Made by a program: the position numbers and the translations under genes. DNA of 64,000 nt from Oikopleura dioica (Eukaryota > Animalia > Chordata). The notes below the pieces were generated by a model. That model was not told the DNA's origin, made no database searches, and saw only the letters and a program-made list of their open reading frames with translations. The stretch lies in the NCBI GenBank assembly GCA_907165135.1, contig OU015570.1, positions 930,001-994,000 of the forward strand, in the 5' to 3' direction. This document shows, one piece after another, positions 16,942 through 46,500 of this stretch (position 1 is its first letter; every line of letters begins with the position of its first letter).

Positions 16942-16959
16942 TGGTGTCAGAAGTGGGAT
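16942..16959 (+). promoter_or_regulatory. primer-binding site, tRNA-Leu
   Basis: TGGTGTCAGAAGTGGGAT immediately after the 5' LTR, complementary to the 3' end of animal tRNA-Leu(CAA). Confidence 0.85.
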
Positions 16960-17000
16960 AAGATATTTTCCCAGCGCCAAACCTTAGAGAATATCCACAA

Positions 17001-19235
17001 GTGAGTACAGAGATGAGATTTTTCTACTCATTAACAGATTTAGATACAGTCCTAGTCGACGCTCTTGCGATTCTAGAGAATCTTGCAGAGCTTGACCAAA
17101 AGGCAAAATATGAATTTTTAAGGAGTAAGTATGAAGATAAAAAAGGACTCACAAAAGTGCCTCTGCGCTTCCCAACATCCAATTTTCAGTCAATAGTAAA
17201 TTTTTACTCGTTAGATATTTCTAGACTAGTTGTAGCACCTAAGGATAAAGCACCTAAAGACAGATGCTATTTACTTCATTCTCCAAGTACTCTTACTGAT
17301 GTAACAAAATTGATTGATGACCTAAGTAAATTAGATAAAAAAATACTAGAAGGACTACAAACTCAGAAATTAGGAGACAAGCATGTTATCCTTGAGAGGA
17401 GTATAGAGGACTTCATTAAGAGAGTAGAGGAAAACATTGATGAACAAAAGCAAAAGTTATTTGTCTCTGGCTCGGCGATGAAAGTCGAAGATGTCATTAA
17501 TGAGTTTGAAGAACGTGAGCGTCTGGTTTTCAATGAAGCGTATGAAAAGGCGGCTAAAGAGTTCTCGGAGAAAACGATCATTATGGAGAAACAAGTAAGA
17601 GATCTAAAAGACACCATCGATGAGCAAGAGAATGAAATTGCGGACCTTCGTTATAATGCCGGGCTTAATGAGCAGAAGATAAGACGTCTTACCAACGAAC
17701 TTGATGCTATGAGGCACAAAGCAACGACATTTGAGCGACTTCACAAGGAAAAGTCAAAAAGAAGCCTCTCACCCAAGAAGATACTCAACAACATCTTTCC
17801 TCGGACAAACCAGGTCGCACCATTAATTCTTGATGAGCCGGTACCACATCAAAAGAAAGATGCTCTCCAGCCGTCTCCGGCGGTAGTAAACCTTGAAACA
17901 TCAGGAGATAAAGCTAATAACACGAAGCCACCTGCAGACCGTAAAAATACCAAAGACGATACGGCGGCACCTGGTCATAAACTTGAGAATGTTGACGGAC
18001 ATAGGGGCGACGGCCAAGCAATGAACTCAGTTCGTAAAGAGACTCGAAAGGAAGAGACAGAAAAACTAGAAGAAGACAATTCGGTTGCTAAGACCGAGAG
18101 AATGAGCCAAGAGCAGATAGAAAGACTGCAGCATCAAGTGGAGCGAATGACGCTTCTCTTTGAACTGCAACAACAGCAGCGAGACCAGGAACTGAACAGG
18201 GAGCGAAATCGTCCAAATGAACGAGCGCGACTGCGAGCTGAAGAACCTCGATATAAAGTTGGAAGGGATCAAGGGCTGAAGGCGACCGTCAAGGCGCCAG
18301 TTTGAGCTAAGTCTTCTGATGCGAGCCAAAAAGCAAGTCATCTCAATGACTTTATAGATTCGTTGATACTCTTTCGTGAACTCTCTTTGCTCTCAGACGC
18401 GTTACTGATCTACAGTTCGCTCGAAAACTCGGGTCGAATGGACATTTTGCGTAAATTGACAAATGAGCAGAAACGAAGTCTCCCGGAATTCATTGATCAT
18501 TTGCGACGGGCTCATGGAGGATCTTCACTTTCTCATAGAGCAAGTCTTAGCTCTCTAAGACAAGGACCCACTGAATCACCACTAAGCTTTTTCATGAGAG
18601 TGATTCGAGAGTTCTATCTTTCGCGAAAGGTGCTCCCACCATCTCCGTCAGCAATCACTGAGAGAGATAGTCAAGAGGACATTCTGTACCTCTTTACAAA
18701 TGGGCTTAAGAATCAAGCGGTGGCACAACATGTCAAACTTCATGAGAAGACAAGACCATTTGCAGATATTGGAAATCTAGCAAATGAGGCCGAGGAGGCA
18801 ATGCAACCGTTGAAAACGCAAATGAGTGTTGTGCGAACATCTAACAGAAGATATGACAACAACGACCGACGAGATGGGAACCGGAGACGGAGATCGCTGA
18901 AAGATATTGAATGCCATCGATGTGGTTTTAAAGGTCACATTGCCCGAATGTGTACGGCAAATCAGAAAACGGTAGGTCGTCATGAGCGTCGTAAAGAGAG
19001 AGGGCGTAAAGGCACACCCTTTCCGAGTAGTAATAAAAGAGGGCGATCTCAATCACGGTCCTCAGACCGCTCAAGAAGCAGCAGTCACACACGCTCAAGA
19101 AGCAGAGATTCCTCAAGGCGAAATTCAAGAGATTCTTCGAGAGGCAGATCAAATTCAAGAGAATCACGTTACAGATCAAACCCCAGCTCGAGACAATCTT
19201 CTCGAAACTCAAGTAGAGAAGGGAGACGTTATTAA
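17001..19235 (+). pseudogene. gag: Gag of element A (one in-frame TGA at 18303-18305)
   Basis: Both ORF pieces are in the same frame. Coiled-coil N-half, LRQGPTES major-homology-like motif, CHRCGFKGHIARMC zinc knuckle, RS-rich tail. Start codon uncertain (first ATG at 17013). Confidence 0.85.
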
Positions 19236-19328
19236 CCGTGCTTATTAATAAGATAACAAAAAAAAAAAAAACCGCATCCTTTCCTGTAAATTTTAACAAA
19301 TAATACAACTAACCAAAACCTTAAAATT

Positions 19329-22300
19329 ATGACCCTCACAGATGTTCCTGCCTTCATGGCGGAAGCCTACTGTCTTGACAGCAGTGGCAACCACCAGGGA
19401 GGCATGGTTTATTCAGAAGTCTTGCTTGATACGGGTGCAATGCTTGGAGCTATTGACTCACGGCACCCTTTTGCAGAATATGGCGTACGACATTATAGAA
19501 CAATTGACATTTCGGCGTTCACAGATAAACTTATATCACAAGAAGAAATCATAACGGTAGACATTAAAATCGTGGATGGTAGAACCAAAGACGCACTTGT
19601 ATCATCAGTGACACTTTTGGTATTAGATATCTTTGCTAGAGAAATAATTCTTCCATACTCAGTTATTTCGAATTTCGATCTAAAATTTGGTCCCAGATGG
19701 TGTTATCTCTATAACAAAATTTCGGAAAAGAGTCATGCTCTGAGGCTGCTCACAGCTGACACTGTGGAAATCTCGACACAGATTTGTTTAGAACCACAAG
19801 CGCAGCAAGAGCTGGATAACACTGGTATTCCAATTGAAACCAATGGCAGAGTTCAAATGGCATTTCTCGGAAAATATAAAGATAGAACGGACCTCCCAGT
19901 AATCTCTCATCGAGAGAAATCGATGATCATCAATGACTCAACGGAAGTGCTAAAAATACCGGCAGGGACAAAGCTCTGCCTAATACGACCAACGTTGCAA
20001 GAGGAACGCTTGCTTGAAGACGTTGAAGAATTTCGAAATAGACCACACCTACGTTAATATCAAAACCTTGATCCAAAGGATGTTAAAGTAAAACTAGACC
20101 ATCTCAATGGCCGGCTTAAATGCATTACTGAAGAATTCGTAGAAGAATTCCATTATATATTTGCTAGAAATGACAAAGACATTGGTCCAGGATTCCGTTT
20201 AGGATATCCCTATAAAATAAACAAAACTACTTCGCAGCCTCAACCGAGGAAGTACATTCCAGTCGCCCATAAATACGAAGATTTTCTCCAAAATCACATC
20301 AATTCACTTGAAGATCAACGAGTAGTTGAACAGATACCCAATTTGGATGTCATCACGGCGTCTTGGGTCATAGTTCCAAAGGGCAATGATAAATTACGAC
20401 CTTGTTTGGACCTCCGTCCACTAAATAATATAACCATTGCGGATAAAAATTTTCCCCTACCACCACTGCAGAGCATTCTACAGGAGCTCTCGGGACACAG
20501 ATATTACAGTTCATTAGACCTTTCATCGGCCTTTCATCACTTCGTTTTGCACCCAGATGACAGGCATCACTACACATTTCTGTCGCCTCAGCGACAAGCC
20601 TACCAGTATCGTCGAATTCCGTTTGGCGGTAGGCTTATCACCTCGTTCTTACAGTCACTCATCACGAGTGTGCTGGCGGAAAACGAGAAAAACATATGCT
20701 GCTATGTAGATGACATATCAATTTATGCCGACACAGTTGAAGAGCACAACGACGTCCTCAGACGGTTCTTTAACAAGCTTGGTGATGCCAATCTTGTCCT
20801 TAACCCATCAAAGACAATTCTTCTCAAAGAAAAACTAGAAATATTTGGCTACACGGTGGATCGAAACGGCTACAAGCCGTCAAAGGCAAGAATTGACAAA
20901 CTTTTGACACTCTCCATACCGGAATCGTCCACTGCAATGCGCAAGGCGATCGCGACGTTTGCATATTTTCGCCCAACTTTCATGAAATTTGCGGAAGTGG
21001 CGCGACAACTGTTTGAATGGGCGCAACCTGGTTCATAATATAATCCGAAATCGAAAGAGGCAAAAGAAGCGTGGGATGCACTCCTCAGATGCACAGCGAA
21101 CAGCGTTTTGCTTACAAAACCAGATCTCAATCAGCGTTTCACACTTCGATCGGATGCCTCAACTTATGCTTATGGAAGCGTTCTGTCTGAACAGATTGAT
21201 GGACAAGAAAGGATTATTGCTGTGGACAGTCGTCAATTCACAAAAGGTCAAAGGTCCTGGTCGATTCCGACGAAAGAGTTGTGGTCAGCGTTCTCAGCCG
21301 TTCGCTTTAACGCTAACCTGCTCACAGGGAGACGATTTACTTTGATAACGGACAATCAGTCCGTAGTTCATGTTATACGAGGAGCAAGGAACCTGGAAAT
21401 AACAACTTCAAACCCAATTGCTAGATCAATCATCTACTTAAATATGTTTGAAATAGATGTTAAGTGGTCTAAGGGAACTGATGCAGATTTTCACCTTACT
21501 GACTTGCTCTCAAGAAATAAGATTCATCTTAACTCCCCAGTTAGATTAGGAACTAAGTCAAAAGAGCCAATTCTACAAGTAAAAGATATCTATGATACCT
21601 GGATTAGTGTAGACCCCCAAGATAAAGAAAAGGTGACAGATGTGGCAAGGAGGGACTACCGACAAGAATCATCAACCAGTACTGTAATAACAACAATGAA
21701 CGTGACTATTCCGGAGGCTCAGATTAAAGTAGCAGAGCTACAAAAGAAAATCAAGAAATCACAGCATGATTGCAAGTAAACACAAAAACGGATAAGGAAG
21801 CTTTTGAATAATGAAAAGGTGCCTGGGTTTAATACAAAGATGGACCCGGAGATTGGACGCAATATCTTATTCAAAGGAGATCAAATTGTTGTGCCAAATC
21901 ACGAAGTTTGTAGCCTGATTGCACAATTACATAATCATACAACAAACAGGGCCATTTTACAACAGATGGAATTGCTCAATCTGTGGTTTGAGAACATGAC
22001 GCGTACTATCACCGAGTTTGGACTTTCCTGTGAAATCTGCACCCGTCGGAAAGCGGTGGCTCGTCATCCAGTTAAAATTGGTCAAACGATAAACCTGGTA
22101 ACTGAACCTTTCCAGCGTTGCCACTTGGACAATCTTGTTTGCAAACCCTACTACATCATGGTCGTGAGAGATCATTTCTCTGGGTACACTGACATGGCCG
22201 CCCTACATTCTGAAAAACTTGGAGACACATTGGAGACAGTGACTAAATTAATGCTCAGAATGTCGCTACCGAAGGAAGTGGTTTGTGATAATGCAAAAAC

Positions 22301-22868
22301 GTTCAAAAGTGAACAATTCGTGGATATGATGACCAACTTGGGGATTGCTCTGACAAACATAAGTCCGAAAAACTCAAGAAGCAATGGGAAAGTCGAACGG
22401 ATCAATCGGACTATCGGCGAAAGACTTGCGACTCTGACAGGGAATAATACGTTACCGTTACTCATGACGCTATCAGAACTGGACACGATATGTGCTCTTA
22501 TCGCGTTTGAGGTTAAACGAGCAAGGGAGCGATGGTCAAGTGAGACTTATAGGATTGTGAGACTTCATCCAGAACAAAATTCACTCACGATACAGAAGGA
22601 AAACGACACGGGTGATAAACGGTTGCGGGCACCAAGATCGACCGTGGCAATCGACAGAGTAAGAAGAATAACTGACGAAAATGAATTGCGAGAGGAGAAG
22701 TCGCGTGATAAAATATCAGAAGTAAATGAAGACGAAACAGCCGAAGTGAACAAAAAGGGGGCGCCAAGGAAAAGAGTGACATTCAAAGACATCGATGAGA
22801 GAGCAAAGGCTCCGGTGAGGTATAATTTGAGAAGCAAAAGCCGGTCTGATCAGCCGACTAAGAAATAA
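19329..22868 (+). pseudogene. pol: Pol of element A (three in-frame TAA at 20055, 21036, 21777)
   Basis: Protease LLDTGA, RT LRPCLDLRPLN and YVDD, RNase H SDAS..KEL..TDNQ, integrase HHCC plus CDNAKTF and SNGKVER. All pieces are in one frame. Confidence 0.9.
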
Positions 22869-23154
22869 CTTTGACGAAAGTTCATACCACCGTAAAAGAC
22901 ACCGGCTTGTAAACATAAAAGGAAAACGCACTTCAAAGTAATTCATTACATAAAATTAATTTTAATTATAACCTGTCGTAAAAATGAGATCAAAGACCTT
23001 GATGTCAAAATAACTCTGATGGTTATGGTCTTGGTCAAAGCATACACGTACCGCCTGTTACCGGTACCACGCCCATCATTAAAACTTATCATATAAAGAT
23101 CTCTTCAAACAAACTAAGCTCACTTCCACTCATGAGACGTCAAACAAAACTAAA

Positions 23155-24975
23155 ATGTTTCTTTTTCAAACCGCTCAAGAGAAACCCCTCCAAAGACAAA
23201 TGGAAGAGCCAGAACTCGTTACACCAACGAGCGTGAATACAACGAGAAACCAATTGTACTCCCCAACAAACATTAAGACAAAGATAATCGCACCTTTAGG
23301 TTTAGCCCTTGTTCAAGAACCCCAAAATACTACCTTACTAATAGAAAACTACCAGCCAGTGAAAATAGATCTTTCGTTTGAACTTCCTATTTTGGAATAA
23401 ATGTTTGCTCACTGTGATGCTGAAATGCTAGAAACCATAAAAACTAAAATTGATAGCGATGAAAATTTTAAAGAGGTCTCCAAACAGGCCCTAGCTCTTC
23501 GACAGCAATTCCTAGCGGAGATTAAGAAAGAAAGTGGATATTCAAGAAAAAGGAGAACAACACAAAAAACGGTGATCTCAATCATGCCAACAAAACCTTC
23601 TAGTGAAACTGACAACAAACTAAGATGGACACCTCACCCGAATGATGTAATATTAACAAGCTGGACTCCTCCACCAACTATAGATAATAAAAATTATCGT
23701 GTTATTGAAATGACAGCACCGTCAATTCGCTCGACAGAGCCGCCGGAAGATAACAAGCTTAGATGGAGTCCGACGACTAAAAGGGCAACCACAACGACAA
23801 CAGAGGCGCGCGTAGTGACAACAAAACCATCGACCACAACAAGAATGACAACCACGAAATACACTACAAAGCGTACGACCGTAAAATCGGAAAATCGATC
23901 AAGAAAGCAGCCCAGAACATCAAAGACAACAACTACAACAAGACGCCCAAAGACAACGAAGCGGCAAAACAAAACAAGGCGAACAACAACGACGACAAAC
24001 CGCCCAAAAACGACAAAACGAGCGGAGCCCACCACGACTGAACATAGAGAAAGGGTACTTCCAACAGTAGGCTATTTTCCGGACAAAAATGCAAGGTATC
24101 ATCGAGGTACGTGCATTAAGGACAACTCTCCAGTTGACTCCTACTCGCTTGGCGAGGTTGTTGATTGCACTGCTGAAGACTATGAATGCTGTAGTCAATA
24201 CACCTGTAAGTATAGGCTTCAAGTTGAGCATATAAAAGACTTGCTAACATATATGGCAGAAAATGGGCGAGGCGACCTTCTATATACAGCTCAACACTTT
24301 TGTTTTGGCTCTCCAGCCTATTCAAGAAGGAAAAGATCAATGTCTATTTTTCAGTATTGGTCGCATGGGGGAGCTCTCTCCCCCTCCAGTATCAATACAG
24401 AGGTGAAGAACCTCCGGGAAATGGAGGATGAGAAAATAAGCAAGTTGGCGAAACAAATGGTCACCTCAAGTGACTTGACAACTTCGATTAAAAGTGAAGA
24501 TGCTAAAATAGGGAAGACGATCGATGTGATTCCTCCAAATTCACCGACAATATTAACTACTCCCTGTACATTTATAACATGCTCAGGAGTACCTTTTGAC
24601 GTCCCAGAAGAGTCCAGAAATATTTAACTCAATATAGTTCAGGACTTAGAGGTACACTTGCAGGATGTTCCACTCTTGGAAACGGATTTACATCTGCTTC
24701 AGAAGAGAATTTCCTCTCTGGCAGTTAAACAGGAACAAGATCACCGAAACCAAGTAAACAAAACTTCAACTCTTATTACGTCCATTTTGAACATCGAGCC
24801 TAAACATGAGGGAACGGCTCGGATAGTTTTTAAATACTTACTACTATTTGCCATCTTAATCTTAGGATACATCTTCCTGAGATGCATATGGAACTCGTTT
24901 CAAAAATGTAAGAAAACAACTCAAACAACAATTGCTAATTTCAGAACCAATCAGATGAGAGACACGTCTGTGTAG
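23155..24975 (+). pseudogene. env: env-like membrane glycoprotein of element A (in-frame stops at 23398 and 24625)
   Basis: Two furin-type sites (SRKRR, RRKR), Thr-rich mucin-like stretch, Cys cluster, heptad region after RRKR, C-terminal TM segment YLLLFAILILGYIFL, located after pol. No clear signal peptide, probably deleted or decayed. Confidence 0.75.
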
Positions 24976-26001
24976 AATATTCAGATAAAAATCCCCAGCT
25001 TGCTTTTAGGGTAAACTGCTTATAATTATTTTTTTTTAATGAACGCACCTTCATATTCATCAATTATAATTATCACAGAATGTTTATTAATTTTCACTAA
25101 AATGAGTGACGCGAAAACTATAAAATGCTTCTAGACCAAAGTTGAACCCATAACTGGAGTAACGATATTTGATTATTTCTTTAAATGCTAATGAAATGCT
25201 GCTTTAAGTAACACGAGAAATCAAGGATGAAAACAAGGCTTAAAAATAATAAAAAAATATATATACAATTATGTGCTTATCATTACTATTATCTATGCTG
25301 CTTGCCGTAGAAAAAGAAAAGAAAAAAAAATTAAAAATATAAATATTAAGATAAAATAAAAAGATACGAGAAATAAAAAAAAATATGAAAAAAACCTGTA
25401 CATAATGTATAATTTAAACTCTGTTTTTACCTGCTTGTCAAGATTATCATCGTTTTGATAACCTGTATATACTGTATATAGTAATCTAACTTAATTCTTT
25501 AAATCATTATCATAATCATAAGCTGGTGCAGAAGGATTTTATTGAATCCACAGCAAAGCTGAATTTCTTCAATTTCCACAAAGTTCAATTGTAACATGAA
25601 AACAGTTCAAAGCAAATTATTTTTCACGGCCAATTGTACATTCCTATTTTCACTGCCAATTGTAAATTATTAATTTTCACTGCCACTTGCCGACATCAAA
25701 GATCATTTTCTTTCCGTCGTAAAACTTAATTATCTTCTTTTATGTTAAAATAATTTCCCTTGATTTATACATGAAAGCATTCTTCAATTTACAACCAGCT
25801 TTGCCACTGCCAATATTTTTATGTAAAAACTCATCAAAATCAAAAGATAGGCCAATAAGGGCCTCACCCCTCGTAAAATGTGCCACTTCAAAAAAAAAAT
25901 ACCACGATGTCACATCAGTTGCTCTCAACTAAATAAAAAGAAAAGAGTGAAAAACAGAAAAGGGACCTCTGTCCCGAGAAACGAAAAAAAGAGAGTCAAG
26001 G

Positions 26002-26838
26002 ATGTATGAAGATGCAGTAAACACTCTTTTTTACCAGGAAAGGAGTTTAGCGACCCACCCAAACCTGGCAAGATGGATTTCGGGACCTGGCTTCTCAATT
26101 GCAGTATTCCTAGGAAGAGTTGCGGAGAGATTCAACTTAGCAGTACCGACAATACAGCCCCAAGCGGTCAACAGATTTGTTAAGAAAACAATGCTATTTT
26201 TGCATCCTGATAAGAACCTAGAAGTGAACGAGGAACAGAGCGAACTACGGACCCGGTTGCTTTGCGTTAAAGGGCTAGTCACGGACAATTTCGAAATCAT
26301 TTCGAAAATTGAGCGCGATCTGGAAGAGAAACGAAGAAGACTACAAGAACGAAAGAGGATGAAGGAACAAAGAGAACGCGAAAAAGCCGTAAAACAAGCG
26401 CAAGAAGAAAAGCGAAGAAAGGAAGAGCAAGACAGACTTGAAAAGGAAAAGCGGGAGCGGGAAAAACGACAGGCACAGGCAAAGGCCGAAGAAGAAGAGC
26501 GTAAAAGGAAAGAAGAAGAAGATCGTAAAAGAAAGGAAGAAGAAGATCGTAAAAGAAAGGAAGAAGACGATCGTAAAAGGAAACGAGAAGAAGAAGAAGA
26601 AGAACGTAGACGAAAGGATACTCGTAAACGAGAAGAAGATGGGTCAGAACGCGAAGGTAATAAAAATAATTATGGTCAGGAACGGAACGAATGGAACGGA
26701 AGCACAGAAGGAATGGAATGGGACTCGAACACAAATGAACAATGGAACAACAGACGACGCTATGAGTGGCAAAATATGAGAACGTCACGGGAACAGGAGG
26801 CATTAAGAAGAATTCGGGATTTTAGAAGAACCATTTAA
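26002..26838 (+). CDS. accessory ORF4 of element A: J-domain-like HPDK protein with a charged single-helix region; probably extends through two stops to 27240
   Basis: FVKKTMLFLHPDKN (HPDK at 26203-26214) followed by a helix and E/R/K repeats (EEEDRKRK). The same frame continues to 27240 with only two TAA. Confidence 0.65.
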   Translation: MYEDAVNTLFYQERSLATHPNLARWISGPGFSIAVFLGRVAERFNLAVPTIQPQAVNRFVKKTMLFLHPDKNLEVNEEQSELRTRLLCVKGLVTDNFEIISKIERDLEEKRRRLQERKRMKEQREREKAVKQAQEEKRRKEEQDRLEKEKREREKRQAQAKAEEEERKRKEEEDRKRKEEEDRKRKEEDDRKRKREEEEEERRRKDTRKREEDGSEREGNKNNYGQERNEWNGSTEGMEWDSNTNEQWNNRRRYEWQNMRTSREQEALRRIRDFRRTI

Positions 26839-27596
26839 GTCCCGCCCACATCTTCGATAGGACCACTCTTGGCCTTGGAACACTGTGAGTCTTTGATGGA
26901 ACAGCTTCCTCAAGAATATACAGTTGTGTACGAAAGTGAACTTTTCTTGGTCGTCCTAAAACAAAGACTCCAAATCCAGAAAAGATGTTTCGTCAAAACG
27001 CTTCTTCGGAACAAATAAACATTAAGGAGTATTGGGAACGTTGAAACTCTGGAACTTGGTCGGCTTGGCCCGATCAATGTGGCGAATGTAAAACTGAACG
27101 ATGGCAGAACTTTTCCAATGATTCAAAATATTTTTACACTCCCGAGTTATCTTTCGTCAAGGCGCATCTCAATGCAGCCGTGGACCCAACAAATTTACAA
27201 TCTTGGAAGCGAACAGTTGTACGATATCGTAGAAGACTGAAGGAACAAAAACGAACAACATGAATTCAGATAGATGACCCTTTTTGATTTAAGACCCTAT
27301 TCATTTTTTTTTCTCTGTACACTAACCTTTATTCTATTATTACTGTTTGAATGTACTAACCATATACCACTTTCTGAACCTGTGTACATTCCCCCCCCCC
27401 GGAGCCCCGAGTGTAGTAGCTAACCCTCGGGTGTGGCGCTTTTCGGGAGCTGACTCTATTTTTATCACTTGAATTCTGATCAGAGCTCTCTCGGATCAGG
27501 ACCTCAGTCCAACTAACAACCTGTTTCTGAAAACACCATCTCAAAATAAATCAACTTTTATAAAACAACTCTAGAGACTCATCATTTAGCAGACAC

Positions 27597-27903: not shown

Positions 27904-28966
27904 GCAGACACATCTATTCAGCATGTTACAACAAGCTTTTTCCTCGAATTCGGATCTGAAAACCGGCCAATTTTTGAGTTTTCACTGTACTTCCTCACTC
28001 CAAAAGTTAACTATGATCTTACACCAGTGGAAGACTCGCCAGTACAAGACTCTGGATTGGAAGACTCTTCAACTTCAAGCTCACCGAATGATGTGACTAT
28101 GAAAAATTCATGTATGGTTGCTTCGAATCATAAAATACTCTCGCGCAATACTCAAAGATTGAAAATCAAACATCACAAGGGACAATGAATGGAAATATGG
28201 AGATGAATAGGTATGGAATTGACTCGGCTACCTCTGAAAAACCAGACGCACCGATTCCTTATCATTAACAACCACCATCAGAAAGCTTCATAAATAACGA
28301 TTTACCCAATGACGATGATGTCCTGTCGCTACTCCCGATTTCTCACCCTTACCTTACTCTCGAACCAAATCAAGTGTTCATGGATTGGCTTCTGAGCGTT
28401 GAAAATGATCCCAATCGAGGTTGACCCACACAACTCTTCAACGACCTCGGCCAACAGGATAATCCAACCCAGAACTAATTCTTCAATAAAAGGGGAAAGG
28501 ATAATGTAAATTCTATACTTGATAGGTCGGAAATGCCTTCTAATTCACGAGGTCTTGCCCTGCTTCTCTACTGTAGAATAGCTCTAGATAAACGACACGG
28601 AAAAGTGGTAGTTAGTTTTGTTGTGTATTCAAGGTTGGTAGAATACGGACTGAAGCAGTGCAGAATGGAAAGTGGCGCCTCGATCCTTATCAGATCTAAC
28701 GGCTAACTTCTCGACCTAACAGCCCTCTAAATCTTCTAGCGTAGTGACGGTGGTTGATTTCTCAGGAAAGAAGTAGAGTTGAGATGATAGATCAAAAGCA
28801 GTCGAGTTGAAAAAGGAGAGTCGCGCAGCAGTCCAGAAGGGAAAACGACGCGGCAGAAGGGAAAGCAGCAGCGGCGGTCCAATAGCAGAGCAGTCCAGTG
28901 GGTGAGAACTTTTACCCAGAAAGTCGAGCGAAGAATCCGATGAGTCAATCATCGCGCGTCGGCCAA

Positions 28967-31900
28967 TCAGCGATCAGCAGCGTAAGTTTTCTTCTTCGGA
29001 TCGAGAGACAACTTTTCTGGCTTCTTTTTCTGTCTCTTGCTTTTCCTCATTTGACGCAATTCTAATTTAGAGAAGAGGTCAACGAGTCGAGGATCGGGCG
29101 AAACTGTCGTCGAAGCTGGAGCTAGAGAACTTGACGAAGAATCGATCGCCGGAAGAGCAGGTAGAGAAGTCGAAGCTGCAGAACTTGGGTTTGATGAAGA
29201 AGTTGTCGATGGTGGTTGAGTTCTTCGTAGTTTTGAGGTAAGTCCAAGAGATTTCCGCGAACTTCCAGAAGTTAAATTTTCCTTAGCCGGCCTCCCAACT
29301 TTTGGAAGCGCGTCAGGAGCTACAGGATAACTTCCAGATGCATTCTCCGGTCGATTTTCTGGCGAGATGAGCGGATCAGCTGAAGTTTCAAGAAGATCGA
29401 GCTCGCGCATCAGCTCAGAATTTCGAAGATGCACAAATCGCTCAGGTACGTAGCGTAGATGTGCCCTGTGTACCCAGTCAACACTATTTTTGTCGTTGTT
29501 ACACCTGATTTTTACGACCTTTTCAGATGCAGTGATGACTGTGAACGGGCCAATCCAGTCGTAACCGTTGGTCTTTGCGGCTTTGGAGACAGGTCGGTAC
29601 AGAGTCACCTGGTCTCCTTTGCGAAGTGGGCGCGCGCGATGAGCCTTGTCCAGCTTCTTCTCCATTTCAAGATCAGCGCTCTTGTTGGCGATCTTGGCGA
29701 CATCGTTGAGAAATTCCAAGCGCTCACGGACGATGGAGCCGTACTTGGAAGGCGAATCGGCGCTGACATCTCTGTCGTGGATGGTGGCCTGAATTGTAAG
29801 ACGTGATCGGCGACCAGTTACCAGCGTGTGTGGAGCCTGACCAGTGCTGCTGTTCTTGTGGCTGTTCATAAATGCCACGGCGTATGGAGCAGCGTCAATC
29901 CAGTTCATGTGCCGCTCGTGCTCGAGCATGAAAATCATCGACTTGAAAGTGCGGTGCTGTCGTTCGAGATTTCCTGTACCTTGGGGTCGAAAAGCGGTAT
30001 GCTTCTCCGCCACGATTCCTAGCTGCTTGTAAAGTTCTCCCATGGTCGCAGAAATGAATGCAGTTCCACGATCAGAAGATACGATACTGGGAATAACGTG
30101 ATGTCGAAGCACTACTTCTTCTACTATCGTCCTGGCAGCGTCGATTGCCCTCTCGCCCGGAACAGGCTTGGCAATGAAGAACTTGGTGAAGCTGTCAAGG
30201 ATCGTGCAGCAGAATTTCTTGCCATTGACCTTGTCGAAGACGGTGAAATCGATAAAGATCACCTGAAATGGCCGCTCGCCGCGTCTGCAGTGACCAATAT
30301 TCGGCGACGACGGATGACCTTGATTTCCCTTTTTCTTGGCACAAATCAAGCATGATGCGACGTAGTTGCGAATGTCCTCTTCCATCGCTGGCCACCAGTA
30401 TGATTGCAGCGAATCGGCAACCCGACTACCTGGATGAGCACAATCGTCATGAGAATTTCAAAGAAGACGGATCGCGTGCTCTGGCGATAGAACTTGGCGA
30501 TATTTGCCGTCTTTGACGTGAAGAAGAAGATCAGTTCGTTTGCAGATCCGGAAGTAGGGCCAATTCACTCGGAACACATCGTAATTGTGGTCATTCCGGT
30601 CGAGTCGAATTGAGGTTGGATCTTTCTGGAACTTGCCAAGAGCTGAAATAAGGGGCCCGATGCTTGAATCTGCGCGCTGATCGGACGCGAGTTGGAGATA
30701 GCCCTTTGCTGCATCGGTGAGGATGAATTCGTCCTTGCTGGCGATCAAAGCTCTGGTGATCCCTTCACGAAGGAGGTTTTTCGATGTACCTACTGGCGCT
30801 GGCACCTGATCCTTCATAGACCAAGATGGAATGTAGGCACGTAGACCATTCTCGAAGTCTACAAATTTTCCGGCTGGAGTGTGAATGTCCGAATGCACAG
30901 GCTTCTTGATGCCAAATGGACGACTGTACATATCTGCCCAAACATTCTGCTCGCCGGGGATGTATTCAACACAAAAGCGGTAGCTGGAGAGCTCGTCCAT
31001 CCAACGGCTCAGCTTGGCGTTTTTGTGGTCGACGCTGTCGATATACTGCAAGGCGGCGTGATCACATTTGACCACGAAAGGCCGGCCACGGAGGAAATAG
31101 TCGAATCGCCGAACGCCAAAAAGGATCCCGTAGGCCTCCCTCTCAGTCGTGCTCCAACGGGTTTCTACTGCAGTGAGGGTCCTGGAAGCAACACCGACGA
31201 TCTTGTCCTTTCCATCTACGAGCTGCATCAGCACAGCTCCAACTGCAACTTCCGAAGCGTCAGTGACGAGTAGAAAATCGCGAGTTGGGTCAGGATATGA
31301 GATCATGGGACTGGACTTGAGCCGTTTCTTCACTCGCTCAAATGCAGCTTGGGCTTCAGGCGGCCAGTAGAAATCGCCGTCACGATTCAGCTTGTTCAAC
31401 TCGTGGACTAGCTGGCTGAAACAACTAGTGTCGATTCGCTCATACAAGCGCGTCTCCAGAAATTCGCGGATGAACGTCAATCGACCGAGCAGTGTACGCA
31501 GTTCTGATCTTGATGTTGGTGGTGCAAGGAGTCGACTCCTGAGGCGTGATCTGGATCGACGCTCATTCCTTCTGGGCTCAAGACACGCCCGAGAAACTTG
31601 CAGGATTTCGCCAGGAAATTGCACTTGCCGGGATGAAGTCGAAGTCCGAACTGCCTCGATGCTTCAAACAGGCTTCGAAGTCGCTGTACATACGCGCCAA
31701 AGGTAGGAGTCGCTATGAGAACATCATCTATGTAAACATAGATGCCGTCGCGGTTGGTGATGGTCTCCAGAGCTTCTCCGACACATCTGCTGAAGATTTG
31801 ACCTGCACAAGACAGGCCAAATGGCAATCGCGTATATTGCCAGGTCTTCCCTCTCCAGGTAAAAGCCGTCTTGTGCCTGTCGCGCTTGTCGATCGGGATC

Positions 31901-34272
31901 TGCCAGTAGCCTGAGCGGTAATCCACGGACGCCATGTACATCATCCCTGGGCGGACTTCGTTGAAGATTTCGCGCAGGTTTGGCATCGTGTACGGGTCAG
32001 GATCCTTCAACACCAAATTTAAGGTGTTCTTAAAGTTGGCGACAACTCTGGGGCTTCCATCCTTCTTTTCCACGCAGTGGAGTGGTGTATTGAAGCCTTG
32101 TGGATTCTTGCATGGCTCGATGGCGGTGATACGTTCCATTCGATCGACTTCAGCATCGACCGCTTGTTGGTTCTTGTACTGGATCTGGTGTTGCTTGCGG
32201 CAGGCGGACTTTCCAGTTGTCGGGATGCGTACCGGCTTGCAAAACTCGCCGAGGGGCTCGTTATCACCACCAAAGACGTCATCGAACTCAACCATCAGCA
32301 GCGCGGTGGTTCGAAGTTCTTCAGCATTTTGGTGATCCCTGGGGAGCTTCAGATTCTTTTTCGTCTCAAGCCAATCAAGAAGTTCAGTTGTGCTCGCGTT
32401 TTTATCAGGTTTGTCACGACTTGACGGTTGTACAGTACTTACAGTACTATTTCTAGGGCTGGAACTCGTCTGCTCGACTGATGGGCTGCTTTTGGCATCA
32501 CCAGCGGAGTTGTGAGCACCGGAGCTCATTACCTCAATCATGTGCCGAGCTGGTCGACTGCTGAGGTGAGCTTTTGTAGTTTCTTGCGCCACATTCCAAG
32601 GGTCGCTGTGGTAACCGTTGATCTTGAACTTTTCAGTGAAGATCGGGTCACCAGGGGCAAGGCGGCGTTGGACGATGATTTCTGTACCCGTCCGTCCAAA
32701 AGAGACATTTGAGGGATGATCGATCACAGTGCGTCCGATGAGAGCAGGAGTGGCTTCATGGTCTGTGACGATGACCCTGATGTTCTTGAAGATAGCGCCG
32801 TCGATGTCCACTGCAGAGACGAACTGCCCTAAAGCCTGTCTGGCTCCGTTCACTCCGTTGATGGTGTAGTCGCAGTCATCCAAGTTATCCAGAAGATCAG
32901 CCGGGATGAGCCGCTTCGGAATCAGAAGGTCGTCTGATCCGTTGTCGATGATACCATCTTTGACCGCAAAAGTTGACCCACCGAGCGTGAGCTTGAAGTT
33001 TACGAACCAAGGAAGTGATGGGCGGTGGAAGCTGGAGTGTGCGCAAAGCCGAAAATGGTTGGACTGGGGAGCAAGAGATGCTGGAGCTTCATCAGTTTCG
33101 GCTGCTCGAGCATTGGTGGTCTTGTTCTTTCGTCCATGCTTCTTTTTGTTCTTGGAATCAGCGTCGTCGGATTTCGGAGCTGGATTCTTGCCTTGGAGAT
33201 TGGAGAGACGATCACAAATGGACTGTAAGGTGGACTCGAGCGACGGCTTTTTCTTCTCGGCTTGACCTTCTTTGGAACTTTTCTTGTTCCAAGTGCCGTT
33301 TTTGACACCGAAGGCGGCTGCGTCTTCGCTGGTCATATTGGAAGGAAGGCGGTCGATCAGGAGTTTCGCCTTGTTGTAGACATCTTGTGCCGTTCTACAA
33401 TCGTCGATTTGGTCGCAGAGCTTGAGTGCGATAGCAGGAAACAACTCGGAGATCTTCAGGTAAGCCAGACATGCAGCAGTCAAGTCTGAAAACTCGTGCG
33501 CCTTCACAGCACATTTACAGACGTAGTTTTCAGGTCGCTTCAAGCCAGCTTCTGTCTTAACAGCGCTGTCGGTACTCGTGGTGTAGTCGGCTGTGGCTTC
33601 ATCGATGATGGTTACATCATGCTTGGCAACTCGAAGCTTCAATAGCTCAACCTGGCGGAAAGCTTGTCGCTGTGCCTCGGTAAGTTCGCTGATGTAAGCC
33701 TGAAGGCCCTTGCTTTTAGTGTACTTGACATCATGAGTACGTTTCAGGTGCTGGAAGATACTGCGCTTCGAAGAGAACATCGATTCCATGGCCTCCACAA
33801 GCTGCTCGACGGTGGTCAGCGGAAGATTCTGTCGACTGAAGGACTGGCGGACTTCGTTGGAGAAGTACTTTCGCGCAGTTCTAGCGAGGAGAGCTTCAGC
33901 TTCCGGCTGCTGAGTCTTGGAGAGATGGTCCACGAAATCGGCCTTGGCTTGGCGGATCTTACGAATCCAGACCTCAACCTCATCGGCGTCGGAGAGATCC
34001 GTTTCCTTCTCAAGCTCGAAGGCCTGTCGTATTTCGACAAGATGACTGGGAGTGATGCTGGGTGTGGTCGACTTCACGGGCGCTTTGCCAAGTTGGGCAA
34101 CCATGAGCTTCTGCTGGGACGCGGCTAGCTGAACATTGTCCTTCTGTTCAGAGACGTTCAGGTTAGTCACCACGAAATCCATTAGAGTGGTACTCCATTT
34201 TTGTAGGTTGGCGCGGCTTGCCGTTTCGATGTCGTCGGCGGGCATGTGCAAAAGATGCGTCGGCGGCGCCAT
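28967..34272 (-). pseudogene. Gag-Pol polyprotein of element B, with two frameshifts (~31520, ~30430-30460)
   Basis: ATG at 34272. Protease IIDNGS, RT YIDD, RNase H TDASE..EREA..CDH, integrase HHCC, SDRG, GNLER and WIGPF. Confidence 0.9.
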
Positions 34273-34446
34273 CTTCACGGGTGAAGTTGCGGTTTCCAAG
34301 AACTGTGAGTTCGGTTGGGCGGGAGAGCGTTGCGATCGCGCGGAGGAGATTGCTCGAACGGCTTCGATCGAATGGCGGCGGCTGTAACGGACAATCGTCG
34401 ATTTGGCGCTGAAAGTTCAAACCGAGTCGACTGTAAGTTGGCGGTT

Positions 34447-34712
34447 GTACCTGCGTTGACCCCAGATTTAAGTTTCTGGAATTAACTTAAATCCTGTCTA
34501 GGGGTGTTTGATGAGCAATGCAGGTCAACGATCCAGAGAGCGTCACAAGTCGTCGAATTCAAGAGCTGGGCCGATGAAGATGCAAGCTGCGTGCTTAACT
34601 TTGGCGGCAGAATCGGAGAGAGAACGAAGTGTACCTGCGGTGACCCCGAGTTATAAGCTTGGTGAGCTATATAACTGCTTTTAGGGGTTTTTGATGAGCA
34701 AATTCAGGTCAC
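34447..34712 (-). ncRNA. two copies (34447-34528, 34631-34712) of a structured RNA motif in the leader of element B
   Basis: Conserved ACCUG/CAGGU and ACCCC/GGGGU stems and a conserved GCUCAUCAAA linker. The inner hairpin differs in sequence but pairs in both copies. Confidence 0.6.
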
Positions 34713-36222
34713 TTGCAGCTGAAGTTCAACGATCTGCGGCGGCGGAAGAAGCACCAGAAGATTCGGCGGTCCAAGAAGTCAAGAATTCTCCCTAGGTCGC
34801 GTGTGGTCGAGTGGTTTGCCAGGCGATGAGGTCGTGTTACTTATCTGGAAGATGAGTAGTTCGTAGTTGTAGTTGTAGAAGCAAATTGAGCGCTCGCACG
34901 TCACCAGTTGATAGGTCGGAAATGTCTTCTAATTCACGAGGTCTTGCCCTGCTTCTCTACTGTAGAATAGCTCTAGATAAACGACACGGAAAAGTGGTAG
35001 TTAGTTTTGTTGTGTATTCAAGGTTGGTAGAATACGGACTGAAGCAGTGCAGAATGGAAAGTGGCGCCTCGATCCTTATCAGATCTAACGGCTAACTTCT
35101 CGACCTAACAATACTCTTTCAAAATTACTACTCACTGCGACTGCTGGAAGGACTCACCCCACTTTTGATCTGAAAAAGATCGTAAGGCGCCAAAGAGCCC
35201 ACATCACACCCTCTAAAACTGCGCGCCGCAAGGCATTTACCACAACTCTATTATACCCTGTCGTCAAACACAAGCTCTAAAAAAATTTATCTCTTTTTTC
35301 CATGAGATACATACCGTGTCATTATTTGTTCGCATACTCAGAGATAGAGAGAATAAAACCCCTATGAGAATGAAAATAAAATCGTTTAAAAAAATCAGGA
35401 ACCGCTTCCCTTCTTTGAGCGTACTTAAGGTTCCATAAAATGCGAAAAAAATTTTTCGCTCGTCTACTTAACTCGCTCAGCCAAATTTGAACCCTGAGCT
35501 CATGTCATGTACGACAGAGAGTTTAAAAACTGATAGACAAAAGAGAGTTTTTCTGTGCCAAAAAGCCTTTTTAAAAAAAGTAAGTATTCTAACTTCCAAA
35601 TTCTATTGTAAAATTTAGTACCTAAGATTGTCGCTGAAGTCTTCATTCCAAAAAAGTCCGGAGCGGAGCGGAAATCGCTCCGCTCACTCCGCTCGCTCCG
35701 CTCCGCGAAATTTTCAACCCTGGCTGAAGACCAAAAGCTTAATTATCAACAAACTTCAAAAATGAATTATTGAAAAGAATAAAATTCGCCGTCACCCACA
35801 TTGTCCTTCTCTTATCAGCATTTTTATGCGCAGTTTCTGCCATTAAACACCTCAATTTTGGCTTGTATTGCATATCAAGAAAATCAAGCTCTTCTAATCG
35901 TTGTTTATGTGTTCGCTGCCTCTGAAGAAATCCTCTGCATAATGCTTGAATTTTAACTGCTGCTTCATCTTTAGAATCTTTAGGGGTAATAATATTCCAT
36001 GATTATAAAAGTCATATGAATCATATTAATATCAAAATTAATGTATTAATTTATTAAAAAACCAAACAATTGCCCACCAAAAAATCGGCCGTTTTTGAGT
36101 AAACCCGACTTTTTTGGAAACTTTAATAAACCCGAAATTGGCCGCTATTTCAAAAATGAAAAAATTTTTCAGCAGAATTTGACCCAAATAATGCTACTTC
36201 TTATCATTTTTTGATTTTCAAC

Positions 36223-41522: not shown

Positions 41523-42721
41523 CAGGGATGGAAATATGACAGAATTTTCCGGCGGCACCGGCACGGCACGGCACAACCAAAATACCCGTGCCGCGGCACG
41601 GTACGGCACGGCACGGCACAAAATTTGATAATGGGGTGCCGCGGCACCACGGCACGGCACAGCACGAATTTGAAGCATATAACTTATTTATGAAGACGAA
41701 AAAATAAAAGCTGCTAGTGTAATTATAGAATTTTCGAAAGTTTAAATGAAAACCATAATAAAATCAAAATCTTGGATAGTTTTAATTTTTCAAACAATGG
41801 GTGAGGGTGGGGTTGGGGACGTTACTGAGATAGCAATGTTCCAAGCCAATGTCAAGCCCCTTAAATTCAAAAATCAAGGAACGGGGCTGAAACGGCCCTT
41901 CGGGCCGTCAAGCCCCTTAAATTCAAAAATCAAGGAACGGGGCTGAAACGGCCCTTCGGGCCGTCAAGCCCTTAAATTCAAAAATCAAGGAACGGGGCTG
42001 AAACGGCCCTTCGGGCCGTCAAGCCCCTTAAATTCAAAAATCAAGGAACGGGGCTGAAACGGCCCTTCGGGCCGTCAAGCCCCTTAAATTCAAAAATCAA
42101 GGAACGGGGCTGAAACGGCCCTTCGGGCCGTCAAGCCCTTAAATTCAAAAATCAAGGAACGGGGCTGAAACGGCCCTTCGGGCCGTCAAGCCCCTTAAAT
42201 TCAAAAATCAAGGAACGGGGCTGAAACGGCCCTTCGGGCCGTCAAGCCCTTAAATTCAAAAATCAAGGAACGGGGCTGAAACGGCCCTTCGGGCCGTCAA
42301 GCCCCTTAAATTCAAAAATCAAGGAACGGGGCTGAAACGGCCCTTCGGGCCGTCAAGCCCCTTAAATTCAAAATCAAGGAACGGCTGAAACGGCCCTTCG
42401 GGCCGTCAAACCCCTTAAATTCAAAAATCAAGGAACGGGGCTGAAACGGCCCTTCGGGCCGTCAAGCCCTTAAATTCAAAATCAAGGAACGGGGCTGAAA
42501 CGGCCCTTCGGGCCGTCAAGCCCCTTAAATTCAAAATCAAGGAACGGGGCTGAAACGGCCCTTCGGGCCGTCAAGCCCTTAAATTCAAAAATCAAGGAAC
42601 GGGGCTGTGCCCCGGTGCCGCAACCAGATTTTATTCTCCGGCACGGCACGGTACGGCACGTGCCGTGCCGTGCCATGCCGCTGTGCCGTGCCGTGCCGTG
42701 CCGCTCAGATTTCCATCCCTG
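41523..42721. mobile_element. hAT (Ac-like TIR) non-autonomous element carrying a tandem array
   Basis: TIR CAGGGATGGAAAT, 8-bp TSD CAATAGAG (41515-22/42722-29), subterminal CGGCA pentamers. Confidence 0.9.
41852..42607 (+). repeat. ~13 tandem copies of a 56-bp unit with an ACGGCCC-TTC-GGGCCGT hairpin
   Basis: Unit GCCCCTTAAATTCAAAAATCAAGGAACGGGGCTGAAACGGCCCTTCGGGCCGTCAA; no variable spacers. Confidence 0.95.
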
Positions 42722-43577: not shown

Positions 43578-46500
43578 AGCGGAGTTAAGTGTGGCGCTGA
43601 GAGCTTCAAATTAGTGAAATAAGTGAGCGTGGCGAAGCTGGCAAGACTGTTAAGCGCGACGAGAGAGAGGAGTTGTATATGATTTCTGTTGGTTAAGAGG
43701 TTGTATTGGCGAAAGCTTCTAGTTTGTTGCTCAAGTGGTTGATTTTCTTGATATTGATTTCCTTGACTTCTGAAACAATTGAAAATTTCCTTTTTTTAAT
43801 AGACGTATTTGAAGAGAAAGAACAATATCGTTGCGACTGATATTACTGTTTAAATCGCCATAGCATAGAATGAAAGCGGTTGTACTTTTCTGTAGATTTC
43901 CGATAGCTCGGAATGAACAAGATCCTCGGTTCTTTCGAGTAAAGAATAAATTTTTTGCGAAAAGTAACTTGTTCGGTTTAAAAATTTTCCAATTTACAAA
44001 TACTCTGATTTCGATATCCATTGTTCGGCTCTAGAACGGATTCATGAGTATTAGTTTGTTGTTTCCAGAACAATTTCTTCAGTCGTCAAGATCGGAAGTG
44101 TCAGAATTTTGATCCACACATAAGAGCTTGTGAATTAGTTCGATCGAGTAAAGTGACGGTCGGTTCTTTTCCTGCAATTTCCTAATTTGTTTAATCCCTA
44201 ATTAGTAGGGTTGCAGTTTGAAATGATGAAGCAAAATTAGAGACGGTGATGCTTGATAAATGCAGGGCGATGTTGACTGGTAGAATGCTGATTTTGAGTA
44301 TCTATGTCTGACAAGAAATTCATGACAGATAACTGGTATTGAACGTAAATGTCATTGACCAGCTCTAAGAATATTCTATCAGACAATTTTCCATGTTCTT
44401 CGCATTGCCTTTCAGTAACTGTGTTCACTGTCTCGTAGATTTGATCGAATTCGAAATCAATTTTTTGAATATCAGATTGTTCGAGTTGTGTTCGATCTTT
44501 TATGCTGAAGCGACGACATCTGGACAGTTTTGCGTACATTTTCGATTTTTTCATTCTGCTTTCTGTCCATGATTTTGTTCGTAACAAAGCTCGTCGCTCC
44601 AGAAAGCAATATCGGCACACCAACGGCAGCTTAAATTTGAGCTTGACGCCTTCGACGGCTTCTTGGCTTTCTGTGAGATGGCACCATTTGATACTTGACG
44701 TCGTATTTTGTAGTTCCATGTTCGGCGAGAAAAGTTTTGAAGGTTTCGCAGTTGTTTTTACTAAGCTTGATTGAGAATAGTAGAGAATATCGTTCGATAC
44801 AGTCGAGGCAAAAGAAGCCGCTAGCCACTTCACAATTAACTTCAATATAATCTTCGAGATGGGTGCGACATTGAACGACAAAAGGTGGTTGCCTTGGAAT
44901 TGTCAGTGAATCTTCCATATATTCCAATCGTGTGGATAGGTTTTGACAGTTCGATGATTGATTGCAATTCAAATGCATCAGAACAGGAGTGTTCTGGCAA
45001 CCGAATCTTGTGTCTTACACTTCCATTTCGATAAACGTTTTCAAGCAACGAGTGTAATGTCTGGTTCTTCAAATACGGCAAATAAGTGTGTAAATTTTTG
45101 AGTGAGAAGTGTTAAGCCAGAGTTTGTTCGCGGTTGCAATTGCGCGATTTTCTCCTAGATCGTTGAACAGACTTGATTCTAAGTGGGTGATAATGCCAAG
45201 AATATTTCCTTCAGAATCTGCTTCGTTGGTCGCTGTTGTTGTTTTTTCGGTGCTTACAGATTCAATTGCTGATTTTATCGTTGCTTTGGTCGTAGTGATC
45301 GGTTTTTCATCGAATTCGCTAACCGTTTCATTCATCGATTCATCATAAAGCAGAAAGATTGCTTCGATTCGAAGTGATAAGCAGGATTACGTTTCGTTTA
45401 TATGATCAGCATTGATGACTGTTGGACCGAGGAAGTTGACAGAGAGAGAAGCAGATATTGTGGGCATAGTTGTAACTTTTGTAAGGCCCACATGATCCAG
45501 AATTTGCGACGTTACTGAACCTTCGTTTGATTTCCGTAAACATTCGTCTTTTAAATTGTCGAAAGCATTTAATATGAAGATAACGCAGTTAAATTTTTTA
45601 GAGGACGTGATTCGAATGACGTGCGAATTTTCCAAAGAAGAACATTGTTCAAAATGAAATTGCGAAAATTAAGTGCTCTTTAAGCGACAAAAATGCTTTC
45701 AAACAAACAGGAGCTCGATGATTTTTTGGGTGGTTTGGACAGGGCCGTCAAGCCCCTTAAATTTGAAAATCAAGGGACGGGGCTGAAACGGCCTGAAACA
45801 TTAATTTTTGTCAAAAAAGAGTCGAAAACCATTGAAAATGGTGTATAAGATGTAAATTTTTGATATTTTGGGGTCAATCGAGGTCATGTGACCTCAGATG
45901 ACCTTTTATGTTCGTTTATTTAAATCAGCATCAAAAAACAATCAAAATGATGTATGGGACATTATAGTTCCTTGCAGAAAGAAACGAAAGGTCATTTGAG
46001 GTCAGGTGACCTCGACTGACCTCAGACGAAAAAAAGGAAGAAAAATGACGTCGATTCATGGTAAAATCGACGTTTCTATCAATATTATATGTAATCGCTC
46101 TATATCTGGATGAATTACGTAATATTACGTAATAATGACTCATCACTAGAATTTATAAACCTCACTAAGCCACAGATTAGACCCTAAGCTACAATTTGCA
46201 CCCTTTGGGGACTCTCCATGATGGATATTCTCGGAGAAAATGGATCCCCTAACTTCTGTGACATTTAAAATAAACGCTGTCTATGACAAATATTAGCAAA
46301 ATATTGAATAATTTTTTCGATATGGAGATGAAAGAAAACAATTCTTTTGTAAAGAGTCTTTATGTTTATCGCTATATGAATCCTACAGTATGATAAGTTT
46401 AAACACGATTGATAACTGTGCAATTATTTGAATATAGGATTCGGATTAGCAGATGCATGGCTCGGCGAGCACGGATTAGCAGCTTAGGAAGCAGGAGCGC

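Follow-up and report, generated by a model that had tools for sequence, protein, structure and literature searches.

A duplicated, bulged hairpin motif predicted in the leader of a Ty3/gypsy retrotransposon of Oikopleura dioica, with a possible role in sorting genomic RNA from mRNA

The leader of element B, one of three Ty3/gypsy elements (A, B and C) held by the window (the whole stretch of 64,000 nucleotides of Oikopleura dioica DNA that was analysed), carries a tandem motif which is predicted to be a structured cis-element and is so far confined to one small clade. The motif lies between the PBS (primer-binding site) and the gag AUG, and the explanation preferred here, tentatively and at slightly less than even probability, is that the twin bulged hairpins would sort genomic RNA from mRNA by joining a packaging mark to a masked splice donor. 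A packaging module had been among the roles proposed in a preliminary description of this DNA; a duplicated structure of that kind is supported by position, conservation and predicted fold, while the role itself is conjectural.

The host element and its relatives

Element B is a young Ty3/gypsy LTR retrotransposon. It has TG...CA LTRs of 202 nt that differ at one mismatch, the 5-bp target duplication AGTAT at both flanks, a PBS, and the domain order protease, RT, RNase H, integrase; env is absent. Its pol is interrupted twice, first where RT ends, by a frame change, and then by a stop before integrase. The gag start at 34272 is the first AUG of the element, and the leader (34908-34273, minus strand) consists of 636 nt with no AUG. 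The features, in order along the sense strand, are these:

34909..35110, minus strand: 5' LTR of B, 202 nt, TG...CA ends
34900..34906, minus strand: PBS of B, TGGTGAC, beginning 2 nt past the 5' LTR
34833..34859, minus strand: small PBS-proximal hairpin with a conserved AAGTAACACG block, common to B and L097 (~382-408), two sequences only
34632..34712, minus strand: motif copy 1, outer helix ACCUG/CAGGU, 12-bp inner hairpin
34699-34690, minus strand: unpaired GCUCAUCAAA of copy 1
34688-34684 with 34647-34643, minus strand: ACCCC/GGGGU helix of copy 1
34649-34639, minus strand: tRNA-Trp-like strand UCGGGGUCACC of copy 1
34638-34632, minus strand: donor-like CAG|GUA of copy 1
34634-34594, minus strand: candidate 41-nt intron after copy 1, ending TTAAG (inferred)
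34530..34631, minus strand: spacer between the copies, in which no stable conserved fold was found
34616-34608 and 34558-34551, minus strand: conserved spacer blocks CCGATTCTG and ATTCGACG, respectively
34448..34529, minus strand: motif copy 2, outer helix with a bulged A, 11-bp inner hairpin
34516-34507, minus strand: unpaired GCUCAUCAAA of copy 2
34505-34501 with 34463-34459, minus strand: ACCCC/GGGGU helix of copy 2
34481-34475, minus strand: apical UUCCAGA of copy 2
34454-34448, minus strand: donor-like CAG|GUA of copy 2
34409..34450, minus strand: intron candidate of 42 nt that follows copy 2 and has TTTCAG at its end (inferred)
31477..34272, minus strand: gag, protease and RT in a single frame that stops at the end of RT
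28967..31663, minus strand: remaining pol in another frame, RNase H and then integrase, with a stop at 30460-30458 before integrase
28520..28721, minus strand: 3' LTR of B, with a purine-rich tract just before it

A Pol alignment used to scan metagenome contigs picked out 32 loci, three of which (L096, L097 and L098) share 68-69% Pol identity with B and form one clade with it (support 100/99) in a tree in which element A was not placed. None of the named Tor1-Tor4 references falls in this clade, which is separate from that of element C. The same alignment found no relative in viral contigs and relatives only 25-38% identical in GTDB contigs. As a separate observation, prokaryotic GTDB genomes, MAGs in nearly every case, have contigs that carry 27 eukaryote-type gypsy RT sequences (L128-L154), which are likely to represent binning contamination. 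Gag has a basic tail, lysine-rich in B, and no CCHC zinc knuckle in all four elements of the clade. B has gag and pol in a single frame, and the other three have pol in the -1 frame, following a stop; TTTTCG near the end of gag is common to all four (B 33057-33050, minus strand; L096 ~1600-1620; L097 ~2175-2194; L098 ~1545-1564) and is a possible frameshift site or splice signal.

The other two elements of the window lie on the plus strand. Element C (52322-59900) has gag and pol in one frame with a single stop splitting it, LTRs that start TATAGT, a third ORF (58594-59505) without a Pfam match, an RT that is 58-62% identical to Oikopleura dioica proteins, its nearest named relatives, and a PBS 12-mer, TGGTGACTGAAT, equal to the PBS of an O. 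dioica element (PMC13524379 supplement). Element A (16731-27596), likewise an LTR element, has a pol interrupted by several in-frame stops, a PBS of 18 nt that belongs to a different tRNA type, and two ORFs after pol (23401-24627 and 25951-26838) without Pfam matches. Elsewhere in the window, 55-57-nt tandem repeat families with internal inverted arms (GCCCC...GGGGC), together with scattered single copies, were noted at 41747-42646, 2474-2984, 5767-5998 and 45742-45793, and fragmented ORFs at 570-2290 (plus strand) and 15276-15488 resemble, on visual inspection, a decayed DNA transposase of the pogo/Tigger type, the first piece having no Pfam match.

Copies and distribution of the motif

The preliminary description was right that the sense (minus) strand carries two copies of about 80 nt, at 34712-34632 and 34529-34448, 184 nt apart. 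The 5' part of the motif has two matches, compared to 0.00 expected from 100 shuffles, and because the repeat unit fades upstream the pair is read as an old tandem duplication of which the cores have been kept. Five further copies in L096-L098 bring the total, with the two of B, to seven: L097 has two, L096 a truncated first and a decayed second copy, and L098 one second copy. The motif is present in all three relatives whose contigs reach the leader (the contig of L100, the sister clade, is without that region). Six distant relatives whose contigs include the PBS and the start of gag (L105-L108, L110 and L112) have other PBSs, which we take to be Leu-type, and no motif.

Searches with a covariance model of the motif found no copy in elements A and C, nothing further in the window beyond B (best other score 14 bits), none in the remaining 17 of 20 loci searched (best score 20.8 bits, antisense inside pol of L100), and no new copy in 39 distant loci. 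Neither GTDB genomes nor viral contigs matched the full motif pattern; 95 viral-contig matches to a 16-nt core pattern were rejected, the flanking parts being found in 0/95. The Rfam search that had been called for matched no Rfam 15 family to the motif, either in the window stretch, where a single chance snoRNA match (E=0.6) fell outside it, or in L096-L098, where there were 0 matches of any kind. No description of the motif came up in the literature searched, although leaders may be described in Volff et al. 2004, the original account of the Tor elements, or in the supplementary material of PMC4402516, both outside that search.

Sequence conservation between B and L097 is highest in the 3' strands (identity 0.81 and 1.00), followed by the 5' strand plus bulge (0.67 and 0.88), as compared with 0.49-0.64 in other parts of the leader; in the four-way alignment, however, the proportions of invariant columns in the spacer (39/88) and in copy 2 (41/80) are nearly equal. 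TTGCTC, in the bulge, is invariant in 4/4 second copies. Copy 2 of L096 has lost the donor and the outer helix and has kept the inner helices.

Predicted fold and covariation

All seven copies, five of them outside the window, fold better than shuffled sequences (z -2.05 to -4.54). The predicted form is one long irregular hairpin, with a 3' strand that is mostly paired and a 5' strand that has two bulges, in which an outer helix ACCUG(C)/(G)CAGGU is followed by an unpaired GCUCAUCAAA-like bulge, the helix ACCCC/GGGGU, a variable bulge of 5-8 nt, and an inner hairpin of 11-14 bp. In both copies of B and in copy 2 of L097 the outer helix continues past a bulged A, the last base of GCAGGUA. The two helices and the inner hairpin, differing in sequence yet paired, are predicted in both copies of B, as had been claimed. 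In folds of the whole 5' region the motif helices hold (P 0.73-1.00), and the bulge core is unpaired in whole-leader folds, with P mostly >0.95 and lower in parts of both first copies; no conserved partner for the bulge was found within the element RNA. Folding energy alone does not fix the strand, and the sense-strand reading is favoured because one-sided changes give G-U pairs on that strand.

The covariation that had been claimed is modest and confined to the inner hairpin, whereas the outer helices are nearly invariant and one of three counts detects none, in a sample of seven related sequences that is too small for a formal test. In the four second copies, aligned by sequence only, 5/11 pairs of the inner hairpin are changed on both sides, a number reached by 25/500 shuffles, and the covariation score of 0.364 is similar to the 0.348 that is obtained when the strands are slid by +1. 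With all seven copies the number of two-sided pairs rises to 8/11 (5/500 shuffles as high), in an alignment with only 65% of cells paired. A model-fitted alignment of all seven gives 0/16 two-sided pairs, which in our reading is the result of first and second copies being out of register in the inner hairpin. RNAalifold recovered the ACCCC/GGGGU helix alone, without covariation, and the two outer helices have a single two-sided change, AUCCC/GGGAU in copy 2 of L096.

The separate small hairpin about 50 nt past the PBS has one two-sided change between B and L097 and overlaps AAGTAACACG, a block that could be a splice donor or a second tRNA-binding segment.

A donor-like site in the outer helix

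GCAGGUA is invariant in 6/6 intact copies, and the strand that pairs with it varies; CAG|GUA lies within the predicted outer helix, and across the four leaders AGGTR occurs only at these GCAGGUA sites. The pairing strand resembles the 5' end of U1 snRNA. In 6/6 copies the GT is followed, at 38-42 nt, by the end of an AG that has TT, TTN or YYY before it, against a background of 9-14% of leader positions for such an AG in the same range, a comparison in which the acceptor rule was set post hoc and the six cases stem from one or two ancestral sites. That the stretches of about 40 nt thus delimited would be introns is a lead of moderate weight, read from sequence. O. dioica intron lengths peak at 47 nt (PMC4122922, excerpt), and larvacean acceptors carry U-rich tracts (bioRxiv 10.1101/2025.08.15.670264, excerpt). 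The O. dioica Tor elements, which B resembles in its short PBS, include one known to splice in the 5' region, Tor3a, in which splicing uses donors close to where gag begins (PMC4402516, excerpt); those excerpts of the literature that were examined describe no such leader structure in Tor elements. In HIV-1 and foamy viruses, U1 on the leader donor suppresses polyadenylation at the 5' LTR (PMC12789967, excerpt).

Two further observations concern splicing signals. The distant relative L105 has a 48-nt intron-like sequence, AAG|GTAAGA...TTTAAG|, at 854-901, which ends 2 nt before the gag AUG. A micro-exon formed by a branch point and a loop acceptor was considered and rejected, CTCAY and pyrimidine-AG being common in these C/U-rich leaders.

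Sorting of genomic RNA from mRNA

In the preferred reading the closed hairpin would display the conserved single-stranded bulge as a mark for Gag and packaging, and the same closed hairpin would hide the splice donor CAG|GUA in the outer helix. RNAs in which the hairpin is closed would stay unspliced and be packaged, the basic tail of Gag perhaps binding the bulges, and opening of the hairpin would lead to removal of the short introns and to translation through the AUG-free leader. The packaging and splicing roles are tied, because an intron in the leader could survive reverse transcription only if spliced RNA were packaged less well.

By analogy, the position of the motif matches that of retroviral packaging signals. 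Like the leaders of RSV (O3/u-Psi) and HIV-1 (5' UTR), that of B has a structured element of about 80 nt between PBS and gag AUG, with a donor-like site within the leader structure; the minimal packaging signal of RSV is an 82-nt stem-loop in the leader, and RSV also uses tRNA-Trp (both PMC5035971, excerpt). Unlike those leaders, the motif is tandem, has no sequence likeness to them that was found, and belongs to an env-less Ty3/gypsy element with a Gag that lacks the zinc knuckle, and its role is a predicted one. Several points count against the sorting of RNAs as an explanation: it is based on four elements with seven copies, the model-fitted count gives no covariation, copy 2 of L096 lacks the donor and the outer helix, and the spacer is conserved almost as well as copy 2. 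It also leaves the tRNA-Trp-like strand unexplained, and the packaging signals of Ty1 and Ty3 are described, in the available excerpt of PMC4974528, as having no defined hairpins and sequences that are not precisely defined.

Likeness to tRNA-Trp

The PBS of B, TGGTGAC, is complementary over 7 contiguous nt to the end of tRNA-Trp, as had been reported, when compared to the Trp 12-mer of the PMC13524379 supplement, which is not the host's own tRNA; GUCACCA ends other tRNAs besides Trp, and the PBS of L097, in the same place, has 9 nt. A PBS of this length is ordinary, element C having the same 7 nt without the motif, and B is comparable in this to the bipartite PBSs of Ty3 and Ty1, in which a short PBS (8-10 nt) lies beside the LTR, the 5' PBS segment of Ty3 being 8 nt long (PMC4974528, excerpt).

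The tRNA-Trp-like 3' end UCGGGGUCACC is present in copy 1 of B, as first described, but is complete in only 1/7 copies, the longest matches to the Trp 12-mer in the seven being 11, 10, 8, 7, 7, 6 and 5 nt. The best match in each of the four leaders falls on the 3' strand of the motif (11, 10, 8 and 7 nt), lengths that are reached by 0/3000, 0/3000, 2.7% and 5.1% of dinucleotide shuffles, respectively, and 10 nt is reached by 2/606 control tiles, which include the stretches of B and L098 themselves. The likeness exceeds chance, is not kept in all copies, and deserves more credit than the idea of a conformational switch.

An alternative that builds on this likeness holds that the motif is a mimic or derivative of tRNA-Trp, a captured 3' end of the primer that would bind TrpRS or RT/Gag-Pol and pass the primer on to the short PBS. 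In addition to the placement of the best matches, it draws on the apical UUCCAGA of copy 2, which is invariant in 4/4 while the stem beneath it changes and differs by one base from CUCCAGA, the anticodon loop of a phage tRNA-Trp gene (L155), and on the PBSs of the motif clade, which are TGGTGAC in the 2/2 seen, as opposed to the six relatives with other PBSs and no motif. A precedent is the HIV-1 TLE, likewise a leader RNA that resembles its own primer tRNA, anticodon-like apical loop included (PMC9315659, excerpt). We nevertheless regard this alternative as unlikely, on the following grounds. The Trp-like strand is paired within the motif with no free CCA end, and four copies match over 5-7 nt; the loops of the first copies share no CCA; each leader contains YUCCAG 1-2 times; of five copies aligned to the L155 tRNA, just one gives a significant alignment; no cloverleaf or tRNA was found in the motif by ARAGORN or Rfam; and the gain of the motif and of a Trp-type PBS amounts to one event on the tree. 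Furthermore, the TLE, according to the available excerpt, is a mimic of the tRNA-Lys3 anticodon arm placed next to the PBS, whereas the motif lies 190-460 nt downstream of the PBS and resembles chiefly the 3' acceptor strand, in paired form.

A primer mimic in the literal sense, which had been suggested, fails, the strand being internal to the RNA with no 3' end from which to prime. The likeness could plausibly have arisen when a faulty strand transfer captured primer sequence, and a TLE-like function is possible by analogy. The fullest version of this history, which must be rated a distinctly long shot, is that the lineage switched to a tRNA-Trp primer, captured its 3' end and duplicated it into a tandem hairpin mimicking tRNA-Trp (acceptor strand and UUCCAGA loop), which would attract TrpRS or RT and bring the primer to the 7-9-nt PBS while the same fold masks the donor.

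Other explanations

Transport of RNA and absence of function can be taken together. Either the motif would serve in RNA export or localisation, as a CTE-like signal or an AU-rich transport hairpin, and take no part in splicing or packaging, or it would have no function, its complementarity being kept by template switching; RT slippage can repair near-perfect inverted repeats, and fly transport hairpins offer an AU-rich precedent for the former. The duplicated bulged stems, conserved loops and AU-rich helix fit protein-bound transport signals, of which the CTE is one example (PMC12789967, excerpt). This pair of ideas is improbable, in that there is no sequence match in Rfam and CTEs sit at the 3' end, while an absence of function leaves unexplained the conserved unpaired bases and the retention of two copies whose flanks decay.

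Marginally more improbable still is a translation element (IRES or shunt) that would load ribosomes, or pass them, across the leader of about 630 nt. IRESs occur in Drosophila gypsy-type leaders, and the leader is long, structured and AUG-free in both complete cases, B and L097 (330-952), with 0 AUG as compared with about 5 expected (P=0.003 each), from which it follows that translation shapes the leader. An AUG-free leader fits scanning, however, for which an IRES is unnecessary; about 175 nt separate the end of copy 2 from the AUG, and no Rfam IRES matched.

A self-cleaving ribozyme akin to twister-sister or to the minimal TS-like class, cut at C^A of GCUCAU, is very improbable. GCUCAU, which is the twister-sister cleavage strand G59-U64 (PMC5660989, excerpt), occurs in four of the six copies that have that part (both of B, L097 copy 2 and L098 copy 2; the other two have GCUCAC and GCUCUU), and minimal TS-like ribozymes are stated to require only this loop and two stems (PMC11620745, excerpt). 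The motif shares with twister-sister and the TS-like LINE-1/OR4K15 core an internal loop, flanked by two helices, whose longer side holds GCUCA(U), but its loop is 10-14 versus 1-4 nt rather than 6 versus 5, and it has neither GCNAG nor an SL4 hairpin. The ribozyme-like motif suggested at the outset was not borne out, no known core being complete: a GCNAG strand with flanking stems has 0 matches in the first 1100 nt of 4/4 elements, the strand opposite GCUCAU being CAAC, CACC or AAAA, and no Rfam ribozyme matched to E=10 in the window stretch or to E=1 in the three loci. Cleavage here would moreover separate R-U5-PBS from the genome. A third GCTCA(A/T) was observed 15 nt after the start of the PBS (B 34891-34886, minus strand; L097 349-354), and the LTRs of B and L097 have GC(A/T)AG-ACCT in U5; the stems that would flank a TS-like loop do not form. 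Other classes were considered separately. The hammerhead consensus has a CUGAUGA and GAAA core around three stems; on inspection of either strand it was rejected, an antisense UUGAUGA having no GAAA after the second stem and no Rfam match, and HDV-like, box C/D or kink-turn, and H/ACA structures were rejected by inspection for their consensus motifs.

A two-state switch, or an anti-PBS blocking the primer site, is just as improbable as the ribozyme. The alternative GUGACC/GGUCAC pairing on which the switch was founded can be drawn, as 5-8 contiguous pairs in 4/5 copies with one compensatory change (L097 copy 1), but it is broken in L098 copy 2 and is not populated: the alternative fold is worse by 1.9 kcal/mol in copy 1 of B, the only one of five within 2 kcal/mol, and by 7.2-10.5 kcal/mol in the other four copies tested, with a probability <=0.03. 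In nascent RNA the alternative helix reaches P=0.29 in copy 2 of B, as opposed to <=0.002 in the copies of the relatives. That such cross-pairing can be drawn follows by itself from the ACC/GGU core common to both helices. Pairing of the motif with its own PBS, the other half of the original proposal, has a probability of 0.000 in whole 5' region folds of B and L097, even though isolated strands do pair with the PBS region (-16.2 kcal/mol for the free 3' strand of B copy 1, -11.7 for L097 copy 2).

Conclusions

Few LTR retrotransposons are known to have defined cis-acting RNA structures. If the motif is merely a packaging or splicing hairpin, it would add one more example to a well-known kind of leader element; if the capture of tRNA sequence proved true, one RNA module would decide primer loading, splicing and packaging. 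In either case, a compact, duplicated, clade-specific fold that comes with natural variants, one of them decayed, may serve as a test case for how an env-less element tells its genomic RNA from its mRNA.
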